A DNA stretch of 45,839 nucleotides, from positions 1 through 45,839 of the forward strand of contig JBGTFN010000139.1 in the NCBI GenBank assembly GCA_041747275.1. Direction: 5' to 3'. A model generated the notes under the pieces. It had not been told where the DNA came from, ran no database searches, and saw nothing but the letters and a program-made list of their open reading frames with translations. The stretch is from Gemmatimonadaceae bacterium. Lineage in GTDB: Bacteria; Gemmatimonadota; Gemmatimonadetes; Gemmatimonadales; Gemmatimonadaceae. The position numbers were made by a program, and so were the translations under genes. Shown in pieces: positions 9,279 to 43,199 of the stretch (positions are counted from its first letter, which is position 1; each line of letters starts with the position of its first letter).

Positions 9279-10199
9279 ATGTCCCGCTCCGTGTCCGTCG
9301 GTCTCGTTCAGGAGACCGCCAGCGATGATCGCGTTGCCAATCTCGAACGCACGATCACCAAGATTCGCGAGGCCGCTTCCCGCGGCGCGCAGATCATCGC
9401 GCTGCAGGAGCTCTTCAATGCGCCGTATTTCTGCAAGTCCCTCAAGCTCGACCGCTTCGACCTCGCGGAGCCCGTCTCCGGTGAGACGATCACCACACTG
9501 CAGGCGCTCGCATCCGAGCTTGCCGTGGTGCTCGTGGTGCCCATCTACGAGCGGCAGGCGGCGGGTCTCTACCGGAACTCGGCCTGCGTAATCGATGCCG
9601 ACGGCGCACTGCTCGGCACGTATCGAAAAATGCACATTCCGCACGACCCGCTGTTCGAAGAGAAGTACTACTTCGCACCAGGCGACGTGACGGCCGACGA
9701 GCGCACGCATACGCACCCGGGCATCAACGGTTTTCGCATGTGGCGAACGAAATACGCCGACATCGGTGTGCTCATCTGCTGGGACCAGTGGTATCCCGAG
9801 GCCGCGCGCATTTCCGCATTGCTCGGCGCCGAAATCCTGTTTTATCCAACGGCGATCGGCTGGCATCCGGCCGAGAAATCGGAGTTCGGCACCGCGCAGG
9901 TCGAGGCGTGGCGCACCATGCAGCGTTCGCACGCGATTGCCAACGGTGTGTTTGTCGCGTCACCCAACCGCGTTGGACTGGAGCCCGAAGCCGGCACTGA
10001 TGGCATCGAGTTCTTCGGCCAGTCCTTCATCGCGGATCCGTTCGGGCGCTATCTGGCACAAGCCGGCACGGGGCCGGAAGTGCTGGTCGCGAAGTGCGAT
10101 CTTGGCCTGATCGAGGAGACGCGTCGCAACTGGCCGTTCCTTCGCGATCGTCGTATCGACGCCTATGCACCCATCCTGCAGCGGTGGCTTGGCGCGTGA
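9279..10199 (+). CDS. aguB: N-carbamoylputrescine amidase (CN-hydrolase/nitrilase superfamily)
   Basis: SVSVGLVQ..., ALQELFNAPYFC, YRKMHIP, and ICWDQWYPE with the catalytic Cys. It sits next to aguA. The track start at 9120 lies in the repeat-encoded tail of the TetR gene, and ATG 9279 fits the family length. Confidence 0.85.
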   Translation: MSRSVSVGLVQETASDDRVANLERTITKIREAASRGAQIIALQELFNAPYFCKSLKLDRFDLAEPVSGETITTLQALASELAVVLVVPIYERQAAGLYRNSACVIDADGALLGTYRKMHIPHDPLFEEKYYFAPGDVTADERTHTHPGINGFRMWRTKYADIGVLICWDQWYPEAARISALLGAEILFYPTAIGWHPAEKSEFGTAQVEAWRTMQRSHAIANGVFVASPNRVGLEPEAGTDGIEFFGQSFIADPFGRYLAQAGTGPEVLVAKCDLGLIEETRRNWPFLRDRRIDAYAPILQRWLGA

Positions 10200-22871: not shown

Positions 22872-23040
22872 GCGAGAGAGGCAGGAACGCGAAGGCGCGA
22901 ACGCGCAAAGGCGCAAAGGCGCAAAAAGACTGCGTTGGTGGGTGCGAGGCGTGGTCCGCCGTCGAAACACTTCCCCAACATTCTTTGCGCGTTCGCGCGT
23001 TTGCGCGTTTGCGCGTTTGCGCCACTGTCTCAGCCCAACA
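22872..23040. repeat. Palindromic element whose arms are tandem GCGCAAA(G/C) octamers (copy 1)
   Basis: The left arm, about 22885-22927, is gcgaaggcgcgaacgcgcaaaggcgcaaaggcgcaaaaag. The right arm, 22983-23023, is ctttgcgcgttcgcgcgtttgcgcgtttgcgcgtttgcgcc. The spacer and flanks are homologous to the copy at 27200-27385. Confidence 0.85.
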
Positions 23041-27199: not shown

Positions 27200-27385
27200 A
27201 GAGGGGAGGCAGTGGGCGCGAATTCGCAAACGCGCAAACGCGCAAACGCGCAAACGCGCAAACGCGGAAACGCGCAACAACAGCAAAGCTGGTGGATACG
27301 GAACTCGGCCCGCGAATCGAACCACCAAGAAATTTTTCGCGCGTTTGCGCGTTTGCGATTTCGCGCCTCCTGAGCCAGCCCGAAC
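27200..27385. repeat. Palindromic element whose arms are tandem CGCAAACG octamers (copy 2)
   Basis: The left arm 27216-27279 holds seven 8-bp units (cgcaaacg x5, cggaaacg, cgcaacaa). The right arm 27337-27367 is cgcgcgtttgcgcgtttgcgatttcgcgcc. The spacer contains tggtgg...ccacca. Confidence 0.85.
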
Positions 27386-34734: not shown

Positions 34735-34778
34735 CCGCGCCGTTGTGGTCCGGCGCGCGGGACGCCATCTTCGCGGCC

Positions 34779-35795
34779 ATGGACTGGTTCATTGAGCATC
34801 CTCTCTGGCGCAACGTGGTCGCCCGCGTCGTCCTCTATTACGCGATCTTCGGTGCCATCGCGGCCCTGGTATATCGGTACGTGCCCACGGCGTGGGGCAC
34901 GCTGAGCGGCGACTCGTTCACCGAGCTGATCGCACGTGACGGTGTGGTGGGTGGGGGATCGGCGGACGGACCAACTCCGCTCGCGACAGCGGTCGCCATG
35001 GCCACTGCCTTTGCCACATCGTTGCCGGTTGCGTGGATCTACACGCTCACGCGTCGCAAGAAGGGCTTTCTGCAGTCCATCGTGCAGACATATCTCATCC
35101 TGCCCGTGGTGGTCGCCGGCATCGTGGTGCTGGTCAAGTTCTCGCTCACGTTGGCGTTCTCGCTGGGCGGCATCGTGGCGGCGGTGCGGTTCCGTACCAC
35201 GCTCGATGACAGCAAGGATGCCACCGGCATCTTCGTGGTGATCGGCATCGGCATGGCGGCCGCGGTGGAGCCCAGTGTCTCCTGGGTGATTTCCATCGGG
35301 TTCAACGCGCTCATGCTTGGCCTATGGTACACGGATTTCGGCCGTCCCACGTCTTTCGAGGGCAAGGGTGCGGAGAAGCGCATGCAAAAGGCGCTGGCCG
35401 TGGCGAACCGCACCGGCATGTTCGTGGCCAAGCTTGATGATGAAGTGCTCAAGTCGCTTTCGCCGGAGCAGCTCGAGGCCATCGCCGACCGCGCCTGGCG
35501 TCGCCGGAAGCGCAACGCCAGCAGCGAACAGGACACGGGTGAACGCGAGGCGCCGCCCGCCTTCGAGCACCTGCTGCGCATCTACACCACGGATGTGGAT
35601 CGCACCCGATATTCGTGCGAGCCGCGGTTCAACGGTTTCTTTTCCCGCTGGAAGTTCATGGGCTCGGTTCAGGAGGGGGATTTGCGTATCGCCGAATATG
35701 GCGTCACGTTTTCCGAGACCGTCACGATCGGCGTCGTCAGCGACGACCTCCGCGCGCTGCCACAAACGCCGGTTCGCAAACTGGAGCTTCGATGA
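34779..35795 (+). CDS. DUF4956-like membrane protein with a soluble C-terminal extension of about 130 aa
   Basis: TM helices and GGIVAAVRFRTTLDDSKDATGIFVVIGIGMAAAV resemble the DUF4956 core. I prefer ATG 34779 (MDWFIEHP...) to the track start at 34743. Confidence 0.55.
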   Translation: MDWFIEHPLWRNVVARVVLYYAIFGAIAALVYRYVPTAWGTLSGDSFTELIARDGVVGGGSADGPTPLATAVAMATAFATSLPVAWIYTLTRRKKGFLQSIVQTYLILPVVVAGIVVLVKFSLTLAFSLGGIVAAVRFRTTLDDSKDATGIFVVIGIGMAAAVEPSVSWVISIGFNALMLGLWYTDFGRPTSFEGKGAEKRMQKALAVANRTGMFVAKLDDEVLKSLSPEQLEAIADRAWRRRKRNASSEQDTGEREAPPAFEHLLRIYTTDVDRTRYSCEPRFNGFFSRWKFMGSVQEGDLRIAEYGVTFSETVTIGVVSDDLRALPQTPVRKLELR

Positions 35796-37255: not shown

Positions 37256-37873
37256 GTGTTTGTCGTCGTCCCGGCCACCGCCGAACACGTCGACGCACTC
37301 AACGACCTGATCGCCCACTCGGCGCGGGAGTTGAGCGCCGGCTATTACTCCGAGCAACAGATTCACTCGGCGATGCGCTGGGTGTATCACCTCGATCGTG
37401 AACTCGTGGACGACGGGACATTCTTCGTCGTGATGCATGAAGGCCGCATCGCAGGATGCGGCGGATGGAGTCGGCGATCGCCGCTCTTCCACACGCCGAC
37501 TGACACCCCGCATGCGACCAGCACGGCCACACTCGACCCGGTGACGGACGCTGCACGCATTCGCGCGATGTTCGTGGCGCCCGAGTACGCGCGTCAGGGA
37601 GTGGGTCGCCTGCTGCTCGAGACGAGCATCGCGGCGGCCGCGGCGTACGGCTTTACGCAGCTGGAACTCGTGGCGACGCTGCCCGGCGTCCCGCTGTACC
37701 ACGCGTACGGATTTCGGGATCTCGCGCAGGAAAGCGTGACGTTGCCGGACGGCGTGGAGTTCCCGTGTGTGCGCATGACGCGTTCGGTCGCGCTACCGCT
37801 TGAGCGAGCGACGCTCCCGTCGCCCGCATCAGCCGTCACGCCGCCCGCTACGCCGCCGCCCGAAACGTCTTGA
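37256..37873 (+). CDS. GNAT family N-acetyltransferase
   Basis: [32 protein letters not shown]...[11 protein letters not shown] 37256 follows the DUF423 stop. The track start at 37169 lies inside that gene. Confidence 0.8.
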
Positions 37874-40226
37874 GCCGCAAACTGTTGCTCACCACACTCA
37901 CCGAGCTGAATGCCATGGCAGCGCTGGCGAGGATGGGACTGAGCAGGAGGCCAAACATCGGATAGAGCACACCAGCGGCAATCGGGATTCCAACCGTATT
38001 GTAAGCGAACGCCCAGAACAGGTTCTGCTTCATCGTGCGCATCGTGCGGCGCGAAAGTTCGATCGCGTGCGCAACAGCCAACAGGTCACCGCGCATGAGC
38101 GCGAGATCGGCGGCTTCGACGGCAACATCCGTCCCTGAGCCGATGGCAATGCCCACATCCGCACGCGCGAGTGCGGGCGCATCGTTCACGCCATCGCCCA
38201 CCATCGCCACCACCTGGCCCGCCTGTTGCAACTGTTCCACTTCGGCAACCTTGCCCTCGGGAAGCACGCCCGCCACCACGCGTTCGATGCCCGCTTGAGC
38301 AGCCACCGCCATCGCTGTGGCCTGCGCATCGCCCGTGAGCATCACCACTTGCAGTCCCATCGCACGCAGCCGCTCAATCGCTTCGCGCGAGCTGGCGCGA
38401 AGCGGGTCGGCCACGGCGATGAGTCCGGCCACGGCGCCGTCCAGCGCCACATACATGAGCGTTTCAGCCAACTCGGCGCGTTGCTTGACACTATCACCGA
38501 GTTGTGCGACGTCGAGTGCCCAGTCTGCCATGTGGGGCGCGTTTCCAACGGCGATTGCGCGTCCGTCCACTACACCGTGCACGCCGCGTCCAGTAACACT
38601 CTCGAACGCTTCCGGCTGCTGCAGGCGCAGCTCGCGTTGCTTCGCACTGCGCACAATTGCATCTGCCAGCGGATGCTCGCTCAACGACTCGAGTGACGCG
38701 GTAAGCCGCAGCAACTCCGTTTCGTCGACCACCGACGGCGTCACGAGCGCGATGTGGGTGACGGACGGACGTCCTTCGGTGACGGTGCCGGTCTTGTCGA
38801 GTACCACTGTGGTGACGTCACCGGCCCGCTGCAATGCCTCACCGCCCTTGATGAGAACGCCGAGTTCGGCGCCCTTGCCCGTCGCGACCATTACGGCCGT
38901 CGGTACAGCAAGCCCCATGGCACATGGGCAGGCAATGATCAGGACAGCCACCGACGCTGCGAAGCCGCGAACGATGGCCTCACCGGCCGAACCACCGCCC
39001 GCATGCAGCGTAACGAACCATACGGTGAACGTGGCGATTGCAATGCTGACGACCACCGGCACGAACACGCCGCTGATGCGATCGGCGAGCCGTTGGATTG
39101 GAGCACGACTGCCCTGCGCATCGCGCATGAGCTTCACGATCTGCGCAAGCATGCTCGCTTCACCGAGTGTGGTGGCACGGTACCGAAACGCGCCCGTTCG
39201 GTTGATCGTCCCGCCGATCACACGATCACCGGCTTGCTTTGCAACGGGTTGCGATTCTCCCGTGAGCATGCTCTCGTCCACGGCACTTGCGCCATCGAGC
39301 ACCTCCCCGTCAACCGGGATGCGTTCGCCGGGACGAACCAGCACCGTGTCGCCACGTACCACCTGTTCAATCGCGATGTCCAAGTCGGCGCCATCGCGCT
39401 GCACGCGAGCCGACTTCGGTTGCAGTTTTGCGAGCGAGCGCAGCGCGGCCGACGTATTGCGTTTGGCACGCGCCTCGAACGCGTTACCCGTCAGAATGAA
39501 CGCGATGATGATGATGACCGCCTCGTAGTACACATCGGGCATCATGCCATTGGCGATGAAGACGCCCGGTGCGACCGTTGCCACCACGGAATAGAGAAAC
39601 GCGGCGCCAGTACCGACGGCGACGAGCGTATTCATGTCTGCGGCGTGGTGCGTGAATGCGGCCCACGCGCGTGTGTAGAAGTGACGTCCCGCCCAGAGCA
39701 TCACGACGAGCGTGAGCGCGAGCAGCGACCATGACAGCACCGGCGCCGGAATGGTGTACAACCACGGCATCGCGCGCTCGAGCGGCGGAGTCAGCGAGGT
39801 CATGGCCCATTGCATGAACGGATCGGCAACCGGGCCGTGATGCGTGCTTTCGCTGCCACCCATCAGCGGCATGCTCACCAGCATCGCCACGGCGCCGGCC
39901 ACCGCGCTGAACATCGCCTTGCGCTTGAGCTCATCGAACTCGCTCTGCTGCGCCGAGTCGCGCGCCGCCTGTTCATCGAAGGCGCTGCGGTCGGGCACCG
40001 GCAACTCTGCGCCGTAGCCGGAGCTTTTCACCACCTCAACCAGCGCATCGGCGGATACGGTCTCCGGGTCGAATGCGATCGTGGCGTTCGCCATCATCAG
40101 GTTGACCGAGGCGTCAGAAACGCCCGGCGTCTTCTGCAGCGTGCGCTGCACGCGCGACTGACAGGCCGCACACGTCATGCCAGACACCGGAATGACGATC
40201 TGCTGTTCCTGCGCCACGGCGCTCAT
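37848..40226 (-). CDS. copA: Copper-translocating P1B-type ATPase
   Basis: HMA domain [13 protein letters not shown], the TM6 motif CPC in [11 protein letters not shown], the phosphorylation site DKTGTVT, and [13 protein letters not shown] 40226 (MSAVAQEQ...) overlaps the upstream stop as ATGA. The 904-aa track ORF extends antisense-style into the cupredoxin gene. Confidence 0.95.
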
Positions 40227-40621
40227 TCGGCCACCACCCGTCCGCGCAGCATGCTCATGCCGCACGTGAACTCGTAGGTGCCCTTGGCGGGCGGGGTGAT
40301 GTCGATGGACGTCTGTTCGAACGCCGGCAGAAAACGCCGCACTCCGAAGTCCGGGAATACCAGCTCCTCGGAGCAGCTGCTCGTTTCCTGGCGGTCGAAC
40401 ACCAGCCGCACCGGCGCGCCGGCCGGCACCCTGATGGTGGACGGCTCGTAGCCGCCCCGGACCGCAATGTGCACTTCCTGGCGTCCCTCGCCAGAAGCCT
40501 TCAGGACTACGCTGCCAGTGTCGGCCATGAAGAAATACCAGTTGACCCAGGCGATCGCGCAAATCCCGGTCGCGATCACCGCCCAGTCGGCGGGGGAGAG
40601 TGCGGAGAACATTTGCGGCAC
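40223..40621 (-). CDS. Membrane-anchored cupredoxin-like domain protein
   Basis: An N-terminal TM helix, then [44 protein letters not shown]...[18 protein letters not shown] (Cupredoxin_1-like with a C..M.M ligand region). This is a typical CopA partner. The start is GTG 40621. Confidence 0.75.
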
Positions 40622-40668: not shown

Positions 40669-40697
40669 ATTATATATACCCCCTCCCCCTATATCAA
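40669..40697 (-). promoter_or_regulatory. Near-consensus sigma70-type promoter of the cupredoxin-copA operon
   Basis: The minus strand reads TTGATA (40697-40692), then the 17-bp spacer tagggggagggggtata, then TATAAT (40674-40669). It is an AT-rich island in GC-rich DNA, about 48 nt upstream of GTG 40621. Confidence 0.55.
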
Positions 40698-40742
40698 GTC
40701 TCGGTCGAACCGTCTGCTCCGCAGCGCAGCAGCGGCCGAAAA

Positions 40743-41191
40743 GCTGTTTGGCATTGGCTGCCGTCGATTCGCGTATGGCCATATGGCCCAGTCTATCAGG
40801 CCATCCAGCCTGGCGGATACGTACAGGGGCACCGAGCGACAATGCTGCCCGGCGGGCATCTGCGTGGCAGACGTTCCTTTTCGGTTCGGCGGGGCGAAGG
40901 CACCGAGGCTGGATGGCCTGATGGACCAGGCCATACGGCCTGGTGCGCGAAACACAACAGCAGTCGGATGGCTGTTGGCCATTGGCTGCAGTCGATTCGC
41001 TTATACGGCTATCCGGCTCAGTCCATCTGGCCATCCAGCCGGGCGGATACGTACAGGGGCACCAAGCGACAATCCTGCTCGGCGGGCATCTGCGTGGCAG
41101 ACGTTCCTTCTCGGCGCGGCGGGGCAAAGGCACCGAGGCCGGAGGCCTGACGCACCAGGCCATACGGCCAGATGCGCGAAACCCAATCGCC
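40743..41191. repeat. Two tandem repeat units of about 225 bp, each with long inverted-repeat arms
   Basis: Unit 1 (40743-40970) and unit 2 (40971-41191) align along their whole length. A third unit begins at 41192 (gctgtatg) and breaks off. In unit 1, 40785-40810 is complementary to 40907-40932 at 23 of 26 positions. Confidence 0.9.
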
Positions 41192-41211
41192 GCTGTATGT
41201 CCGTTCACAAC

Positions 41212-41251
41212 GCAAAAGAGCCCGCCGAGAGATTGCTCTCGCGGCGGGCTC
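41212..41251 (-). terminator. Rho-independent terminator of tRNA-Gln
   Basis: The minus strand reads GAGCCCGCCGCGAGAG-caat-CTCTCGGCGGGCTC followed by TTTTG (plus-strand hairpin 41218-41251, A-run 41214-41217). Confidence 0.8.
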
Positions 41252-41256
41252 CTTCA

Positions 41257-41329
41257 TTGCCCCTCTAGGGCTCGAACCTAGACTCTCCTCATCCAGAGTG
41301 AGGCGTGTTGCCAGTTACACCAAGGGGCA
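41257..41329 (-). tRNA. tRNA-Gln (anticodon CUG)
   Basis: The minus strand reads TGCCCCT TG GTGT AACTGGCA ACAC G CCTCA CTCTGGA TGAGG AGAGT CTAGG TTCGAGC CCTAG AGGGGCA A. The cloverleaf is complete, with U1:A72 as is usual for tRNA-Gln. CCA is not encoded. Confidence 0.9.
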
Positions 41330-41367
41330 GCAATCACTGCTCGGCGAACCGAGCGATAGCATCCCGA

Positions 41368-41397
41368 ATCATATCGCCATCGGCTGGTCACGGGCAA
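41368..41397 (-). promoter_or_regulatory. Candidate promoter of tRNA-Gln
   Basis: The minus strand reads TTGCCC (41397-41392), an 18-bp spacer, then TATGAT (41373-41368). The leader of about 35 nt contains GCTCGG-ttcg-CCGAGC. Confidence 0.35.
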
Positions 41398-41533
41398 CCC
41401 CTCCGCCAACCACCACAGGCGTGACCGCTCGTAGCAGATCGCTGGCCACGAACGGCTTCGCACGCGGGCGGAAAACCGTCGTGCACAATGCCGTGAAGGG
41501 CTCCGACAGGCTCCAGCTGGGTAAAATGACGAC

Positions 41534-42859: not shown

Positions 42860-42869
42860 AACGAAATCG

Positions 42870-42890
42870 CCGCAGCTTTGTGGGCTGCGG
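42870..42890 (-). terminator. Terminator hairpin (minus-strand U-tract), also placed right after the plus-strand gene
   Basis: ccgcagc (42870-42876) and gctgcgg (42884-42890). On the minus strand it is followed by cgATTTCGTTTT. Confidence 0.55.
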
Positions 42891-43126
42891 CGGACGCGGC
42901 GAATCCCGTCGGATCTCGCCTGGCGATCCCTTCGTCAAGGGTCGCAGAAGGTGCCTCACGCATCGCCATTGGAACTCTCCGTCCTACCGGACGATGGCGG
43001 GCTCTCCTTCAGTATTTTGCCTTTATACCCGGACGTACGCCACGGGTTCCTGGTCTCATTTGTGCAACAACGCGCAGTGCCATACTGCTGGCAAGACTTC
43101 GATATGGACGCTGATGACTACTTTGA

Positions 43127-43199
43127 TGGAGCTGAGGGGGCTCGAACCCCTGACCTCTGCAATGCGAATGCAGCGCTCTCCCAGCTGAGCTACAGCCCC
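43127..43199 (-). tRNA. tRNA-Ala (anticodon CGC)
   Basis: The minus strand reads GGGGCTGTAGCTCAGCTGGGAGAGCGCTGCATTCGCATTGCAGAGGTCAGGGGTTCGAGCCCCCTCAGCTCCA. It has the G3:U70 identity pair and the anticodon loop TTCGCAT. CCA is not encoded. Confidence 0.95.

Follow-up and report, generated by a model that had tools for sequence, protein, structure and literature searches.

An intergenic stretch of a Gemmatimonadaceae contig (JBGTFN010000139.1, assembly GCA_041747275.1), positions 40720–41212, was found by repeat finding, BLASTN and alignment to hold a tandem array of two full ~229-bp units and the stub of a third. The unit is built on a long imperfect palindrome, occurs in 0, 1 or 2 copies at the same site in different species, lies outside both predicted transcripts that flank it and carries neither a coding nor a covariation signal. 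The reading we favor, with about as much confidence as doubt, is that of a local, lineage-restricted extragenic palindrome of REP/BIME- or MITE-like architecture that has been expanded and deleted by recombination. The array is best read as non-coding DNA that would act, if at all, at the DNA level. Throughout, the window denotes the whole 45,839-nt stretch that was analyzed (64% G+C); its nearest representative genome is "Gemmatimonadales bacterium Co_metawrap_266."

Organization of the array and its surroundings

Unit 1 (40743–40970) and unit 2 (40971–41191), in the phase chosen by the first-pass annotation, have the same sequence order. They had been said to align end to end at roughly 85% identity; a gapped alignment of 40720–40947 with 40948–41176 gave 194 matches in 227 (85.5%), the differences comprising 21 transitions, 12 transversions and 3 gap columns, and BLASTN of one unit against the 45.8-kb window recovered the other with E = 1.4e-69. 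The unit coordinates proposed from the letters alone proved exact, but the similarity goes further left, to 40720. Repeat searching resolved a 140-nt core at 89% identity and a spacing of 230, with flanks at 77–79%; Tandem Repeats Finder missed the array, and other repeat finding, MAFFT and BLAST were used instead. Differences between the units are unevenly distributed, with 7 in 94 positions of the core, 15 in 78 of the arms and 14 in 53 of the flank (Fisher p = 0.003).

The pentamer GCTGT stands at 40743, 40971 and 41192, and a short sequence, TTGGCTGCNGTCGATTCGC, is found ahead of each unit and again after. A third unit, cut off, had been placed from 41192; the third GCTGT is indeed there and opens a short stub, GCTGTATGTCCGTTCACAACG (41192–41212), which the aligned sequences identify as unit flanks without the palindrome. 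In unit 1 the left arm (40754–40810) contains GGCCATCCAGCC and GGCCATATGGCC, the latter a perfect 12-nt palindrome at 40777–40788, and a core of 96 nt (40811–40906) separates it from the right arm (40907–40966), which is its inverted copy. The corresponding left arm of unit 2 (40982–41040) is degenerate, as is the right arm (41137–41195), which has a 1-nt deletion; the unit 2 core lies between them at 41041–41136. Between TCGATTCGC and GGCCATCCAGCC unit 1 has 26 nt and unit 2 has 28, which corrects an earlier count of 29 versus 31 nt and retains its 2-nt difference.

On the minus strand the array is preceded by tRNA-Gln(CTG) and its terminator and followed by a promoter, a Cupredoxin_1 gene and a CopA-type ATPase gene, in that order. 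The tRNA gene (41257–41329, minus strand; tRNA prediction and Rfam) has a promoter-like site at 41397–41368 by consensus scan and is followed by an intrinsic terminator hairpin (41215–41254, minus strand), an inverted repeat with an 18-bp stem followed by TTTTG that forms the right boundary of the array. The left boundary is a sigma-70-type promoter of the cupredoxin–copA operon (40669–40697, minus strand; TTGATA-17-TATAAT, 11 of 12 consensus matches) with a G5AG5 tract inside its −35/−10 spacer, and 23 nt separate the −35 box from the array upstream of it. Downstream of the array, the first gene of the operon encodes a Cupredoxin_1-domain protein (40223–40612, minus strand; domain match), and it is followed by the gene for a P1B ATPase of CopA type (37848–40226, minus strand; matches to the HMA, E1-E2_ATPase and Hydrolase domains). 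The placement of the repeats between the tRNA-Gln terminator and the copper operon promoter, as first described, is thus borne out and, because the array sits behind the former and upstream of the −35 box of the latter, it is outside both predicted transcripts.

The promoter itself drew attention as a separate feature. Its sequence is common to all relatives, with or without a repeat unit, and on the plus strand, TATATACCCCCTCCCCCTATATCAA (40669–40697) shows a C5-T-C5 tract with ATATA/TATAT on either side, between −35 and −10. A scan of JGI metagenomes found the exact promoter 25-mer on 21 contigs, in differing surroundings; in several of these the sequence just upstream looks, by eye, like the 3′ terminus of a small ORF that encodes HxxxCxxC. 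From its sequence the tract looks like a candidate conserved operator of Gemmatimonadota copper operons, and its shape resembles that of RcnR/CsoR-type sites.

Copy number at the same site in related species

Relatives were gathered with the cupredoxin gene as anchor, which gave few public contigs of the genus-level group; exact-protein look-ups returned mostly short Logan contigs that end before or inside the spacer. From promoter to tRNA-Gln terminator, the spacer measures ~515 nt in the window (two units and the stub), ~370 nt in L108 (ENA ERZ25039510, a 63-kb contig), where one unit is present in the same orientation, 75 nt in L001 (GCA_038330215.1), where the sequence resembles the outer flanks of the unit only, and ~30 nt in L110–112. 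In L107 the same interval is taken up by ~4 kb of unrelated genes (PBP-like protein, porin and MCP), and in two more distant genomes tRNA-Gln lies 2.6 kb upstream of the cupredoxin gene. This variability across relatives marks the spacer as an insertion/deletion hot spot. At the tRNA-Gln site the copy number is therefore two in the window, one in L108 and zero in L001 and L110–112, so that the phrase "amplified next to a tRNA," used for the repeats at the outset, describes the situation well.

The L108 unit occupies the orthologous site and is 75–77% identical to the window units (BLAST E = 1e-46). It is followed by a second copy of the first 20 nt of the unit and by a run of GGCCGTTGGCC mini-repeats. 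In the aligned sequences, the third-unit stub of the window matches both the L001 spacer and the last, "empty" unit of L108. Over 1.8 kb of cupredoxin–copA, all pairs of relatives are 85–91% identical, and the tree based on copA, with pairs at 85–87%, is almost star-like, so a single gain in one sub-lineage is weakly polarized.

Several further differences were seen around this site. At the junction of the unit with the terminal partial unit in L108 (~9607–9650), the 7-nt mini-repeats run as GGCCGTTGGCC GTTGGCC GTTGGCC and so on, a further sign of slippage at the tRNA-Gln locus. A short-read contig from the same strain (L004, Logan SRR28170462) ends at window position 40935, in the right arm of unit 1, where the two units have only a 16-mer in common; the population may be heterogeneous in copy number, or coverage may simply be low. 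Beside tRNA-Gln, L001 (7839–10021) and L108 (7408–9470) carry a PAS/HisKA/response-regulator hybrid kinase, and the window (41330–41533) does not. A GNAT acetyltransferase gene lies between the DUF423 gene and copA in the window (37336–37833) and in L108, and is missing from L001.

For comparison with sites expected to be neutral, the window and L108 were aligned over the neighboring genes. Identity at four-fold degenerate sites is 56% in copA and 66% in the cupredoxin gene, and it is 56% in the 5′ UTR adjoining the element. The corresponding figure for the unit is 77%, its arms reaching 80–86% and its core 70%; the core of unit 1 is 92% identical to that of unit 2 and 70% identical to that of L108. 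An identity of 77% between species, compared with about 57% at neutral sites, points either to constraint, mainly on arm sequence, or to an element younger than the species split. A neutral relic inherited vertically should have diverged beyond 77%, which counts against purely neutral descent; under the second option, the same site would have been reached twice.

A long palindrome preserved in unit 1 and decayed in unit 2

Unit 1 forms an imperfect palindrome of ~215 nt. By repeat search its arms are 40777–40811 and 40906–40940 (35 nt, 89% complementary), and with bulges the stem reaches ~40754–40966, giving arms of ~57–60 nt. The pairing reported at first sight, 40785–40810 with 40907–40932 at 23 of 26 positions around 96 enclosed nt, was reproduced exactly. 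The predicted fold has an energy of −124.6 kcal/mol (z = −7.3), and none of 200 shuffles was as good. The unit in L108, with which unit 1 is collinear, also gives a long hairpin (z = −5.5). Most pairing is lost from unit 2 (z = −2.1), in agreement with the earlier remark that its arms are more degenerate. Each inverted arm holds either a local stem of 6–8 bp or the 12-nt palindrome GGCCATATGGCC.

Folding energies of the plus and minus strands are close to each other, at −123.0 and −121.5 kcal/mol for unit 1 and −121.6 and −125.0 kcal/mol for L108, and a profile built from the three copies also matches the element in reverse orientation. Since both strands fold equally well, the palindrome is a symmetrical DNA feature in which no strand is marked as RNA, and a strand-specific RNA was rejected on the same ground. 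The array contains the 12-mer palindrome three times, where 0.06 occurrences would be expected in the whole window. Across the window and the related loci, no other occurrence was found outside the element except one probable chance match in L010; a regulon defined by the 12-mer was accordingly rejected.

When the copies are polarized with L108, the changes divide into 13 specific to unit 1, 15 specific to unit 2 and 35 on the L108 or stem branch, which places the duplication in the lineage of the window, after the split. Among stem positions, all five changes specific to unit 1 keep a pair, whereas six of the nine specific to unit 2 break one (Fisher p = 0.03). One copy is maintained, and the other is decaying. 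The sequence TTGGCTGCNGTCGATTCGC stands before each palindrome, and in L108 a copy of it also follows the last palindrome.

Tests for coding and RNA function

The region had been judged non-coding by inspection, and each test run here agreed. A concatenated six-frame translation found no match among 5.8 billion proteins, substitutions between the units are spread evenly over codon positions with no codon periodicity, and the indels that separate the units are 2 and 1 nt long. A type I toxin–antitoxin repeat was rejected: no small hydrophobic ORF is conserved, and unit 2 has lost the ATG present in unit 1.

An Rfam 15 search returned only tRNAs at the gathering threshold and only weak, chance-level matches at E ≤ 10, in keeping with the initial statement that no known RNA family could be recognized. 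A consensus scan of both strands found no sigma-70-like site within the units, and the terminator-like sites in them are weak stems of 5 bp. In the three-copy alignment, 30 of the 47 pairs of the long stem are invariant, 10 vary on one side and 7 have broken cells. A covariation check on these three copies gave no compensatory change in any of the 47 pairs, a comparison of low power with only three sequences. Three inner pairs changed on both sides, a count that 65 of 500 shuffles also reach. The proposal of a structured sRNA or cis-regulatory array found no support: the array sits behind a terminator and upstream of the −35 box, no promoter-like site was seen in the units, the long stem shows no compensatory change in the three copies and both strands fold alike. 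Its variant, cis-regulation of the copper operon, is likewise unsupported, since there are species that have an identical promoter and operator and carry no element.

Other candidates were tried and set aside. From a reading of the sequence, the spacings in the core do not fit a sigma-54 or ECF promoter, and the R-box consensus of an integron attC site (GTTRRRY/RYYYAAC) is unmatched, with no integrase nearby. Duplication of a tRNA 3′ end by an integrase (att) was also dismissed, the flanking repeat having no similarity to the tRNA.

Search for further copies and for hallmarks of mobility

BLASTN with one unit, the check first suggested for copy number, was run on the 45.8-kb window, on L108 over 20 kb and on related Gemmatimonadota loci totalling 945 kb, and found no further copy; a profile search (nhmmer --max) of the L108 and Gemmatimonadota sequences was equally negative. 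An exact 23-mer had no match in 185,579 representative genomes, a two-block pattern none in the JGI metagenomes, and two degenerate arm patterns none in viral contigs; these pattern scans demand exact matches, and diverged copies would escape them. Distant blastn against plasmids and phages gave no match, no translated copy (as a spurious ORF call) was found among the 5.8 billion proteins, and none of the 21 JGI loci fetched with the promoter 25-mer has a tRNA-Gln gene or the element.

Pfam domains of transposases, integrases or reverse transcriptases were absent from the scanned ORFs of the window, and no RAYT was found either; the scan took in all but the shortest ORF calls (92, 92 and 83 aa) and a 350-aa ORF at 34743–35795, whose orthologue in L001/L108 is listed as DUF4956. 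Terminal inverted repeats of the kind expected of a MITE are present, as arms of 35 nt that are 89% complementary with a bulged extension to ~57–60 nt. The tetramer CGCG lies on both sides of the palindrome and, being itself palindromic, is ambiguous as a target-site duplication. In L108 an 11-nt direct repeat, GCCAAATGGGC, encloses the whole block, its right copy forming the foot of the terminator; no clear target-site duplication or equivalent of this repeat was found in the window. Dispersed copies, typical of MITEs, were not seen in the window, the 20 kb of L108, the 945 kb of loci or the collection scans, and the tens to hundreds of copies characteristic of REP, REPIN and BIME families were likewise not seen, the arm motifs occurring in the window and loci only inside the element. 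The pattern of a simple tandem duplication is present: the units stand head to tail in the same orientation, and their number varies among relatives. Of the early suggestion of a REP/MITE-like selfish element, the architecture and the presence/absence among relatives stand; the data searched showed neither dispersed copies nor a cognate transposase, nor a target-site duplication free of ambiguity.

Other non-coding features of the contig

Two further kinds of feature were noted elsewhere in the window. Downstream of tRNA-Ala (43127–43199), at 42862–43068 on the minus strand, lies a non-coding block of ~205 nt that is almost invariant in three species with gene identities of only ~85%: against L108 it is 97% identical over 229 nt and 100% over 42900–43000. 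It ends in a clear intrinsic terminator, GCCGCAGCCCACAAAGCUGCGGC then UUUCGUUUU, and matches no Rfam family. The block is a candidate for a new small RNA encoded next to, or co-transcribed with, tRNA-Ala.

Octamer arrays occur at two sites. At 22888–23022, 4.8 copies of CGCAAAGG are followed by 4.9 of TTTGCGCG, and at 27225–27357, 6.6 copies of CGCAAACG by 2.4 of GCGCGTTT. At both, the second array lies ~60 nt on and is the approximate reverse complement of the first, and the paired arrays could form long hairpins.

Discussion

REPINs are REP doublets mobilized by RAYT transposases, BIME clusters are arranged with their units head to tail, and REP/BIME elements of E. coli are bound by gyrase and IHF. 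The architecture described here is comparable to that of extragenic palindromes such as REP/BIME, REPIN, ERIC and MITEs; membership of one of these families is not claimed. As in REP/BIME/REPIN systems, the array is extragenic and follows a terminator, each arm of the unit has its own short palindrome, and the units stand head to tail; inverted arms with a spacer, forming a long hairpin, come close to the definition of REPINs as worded in one account (PMC3337134). REPINs, however, are ~100 bp long and number tens to hundreds per genome, whereas the present unit has 229 bp, a 96-nt core and one known locus; its arms are longer than a typical REP, lack a GTAG/CTAC motif and flank a spacer of 96 nt. 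With MITEs, such as Correia elements or the ERIC-type imperfect palindromes, the unit shares small size, non-coding sequence, long inverted arms and an intergenic location, going by a general description of these elements (PMC3184786), and also its presence/absence pattern between relatives. It differs from them in having no unambiguous target-site duplication, no dispersed copies found and no known partner IS, and in that conservation in the second copy is lower in the arms than in the core, the opposite of what is usual in active MITEs. With ordinary intergenic tandem duplications of variable copy number, produced by slippage or unequal crossing-over, the array shares the single orientation, the 0/1/2 copies, the partial terminal copy and the short direct repeats at the borders; it differs from them in that the unit is itself a long palindrome and is better conserved between species than neutral sites.

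For the local, lineage-restricted palindrome that we favor, the following history may be proposed. The palindrome would have been inherited vertically within one small Gemmatimonadales sub-lineage. A second, head-to-tail copy would then have arisen through unequal recombination between short flanking direct repeats, or through slippage between them during replication. Units would be lost by the same process or by excision of the palindrome. Recombination or slippage between direct repeats would explain why a unit was gained here and why L001 has the flanks only, and the near-empty spacer of one relative, in which almost nothing is kept, would likewise represent unit removal. Since the duplication, unit 1 has retained its pairing, and unit 2, being redundant, is decaying. 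We infer that this scheme accounts for the gain and loss of units, and not for the origin of the palindrome.

A different origin, which we consider doubtful, is that of a mobile non-autonomous element of MITE- or REPIN-like type, with copies elsewhere in the genome. It would have entered at the base of the tRNA-Gln terminator, perhaps by separate events in the two species, and local amplification would have followed. The arms resemble long terminal inverted repeats and are better kept between species than the core (80–86% versus 70%), the element is present or absent at one site among closely related species, the spacer between tRNA-Gln and the cupredoxin gene is a hot spot of insertion and deletion, the identity above neutral sites fits an age younger than the host split, and the 11-nt direct repeat GCCAAATGGGC around the L108 block could be a target-site duplication. 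Against these points, no second locus appeared in the window, in the L108 and Gemmatimonadota loci searched (20 and 945 kb) or in the collection scans, the scanned window ORFs offer no transposase, integrase or reverse-transcriptase domain, and the window itself shows no clear target-site duplication, its CGCG being palindromic and so ambiguous. The short repeats flanking the L108 unit are, moreover, only 80% alike, which would make any insertion old. That the array is a structured RNA seems very improbable, be it an sRNA gene duplicated in tandem or an RNA that affects tRNA-Gln read-through or copper operon expression in cis. It would draw on the very stable folds predicted for unit 1 and L108, on the conservation above neutral sites, on the three inner pairs changed on both sides and on the unit-1-specific stem changes, after all of which the plus strand still has a standard or G-U pair. 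Yet the inner changes are within the range of shuffles (65 of 500), none of the 47 long-stem pairs is compensated, folding energy shows no strand asymmetry and unit 2 has not kept the fold; Rfam yields nothing above chance level even at E ≤ 10, and the units show nothing that resembles a promoter and, for terminators, only weak 5-bp stems. The array is also behind a terminator and outside the operon transcript, and sister species with the same flanking genes dispense with the element. The element would further seem not to regulate the copper operon, because promoter and operator are identical in species that lack it.

It is also possible, although we think it unlikely, that the array is a DNA element selected by the host, bearing protein-binding sites (the 12-bp palindromes GGCCATATGGCC/GGCCATACGGCC) or, as a cruciform-prone or gyrase/IHF-type element, insulating a promoter from the strongly transcribed tRNA gene before it. 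Conservation of both arms in sequence without covariation would suit such a role, as would the like folding of the strands, the threefold occurrence of the 12-mer (0.06 expected in the window) and the survival of one intact copy as its duplicate decays. In the window and the related loci the 12-mer is, however, confined to the element bar one probable chance match (L010), which speaks for no regulon; sister species lack the element, and no binding protein is known. We would give similarly little credence to a palindrome selected by the host within the sub-lineage, whether as a DNA insulator or protein-binding module or as a hairpin in read-through RNA, in either case set between a strongly transcribed tRNA gene and the copper-efflux promoter, of which one copy would have stayed under selection after the duplication and which would have been kept at 77% against ~57% for neutral sequence.

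If the reading of a local, lineage-restricted palindrome is correct, the locus would be a small natural example of a long extragenic palindrome being gained, duplicated and deleted beside a tRNA gene, with uncultured Gemmatimonadales relatives showing 0, 1 and 2 copies of it. Annotation of the array as an sRNA or a copper riboregulator is unwarranted. To our knowledge, no structural DNA function of REP-like elements has been described in the Gemmatimonadota; if the better-than-neutral conservation reflects selection by the host, the array would point to such a function for REP-like elements in this phylum.
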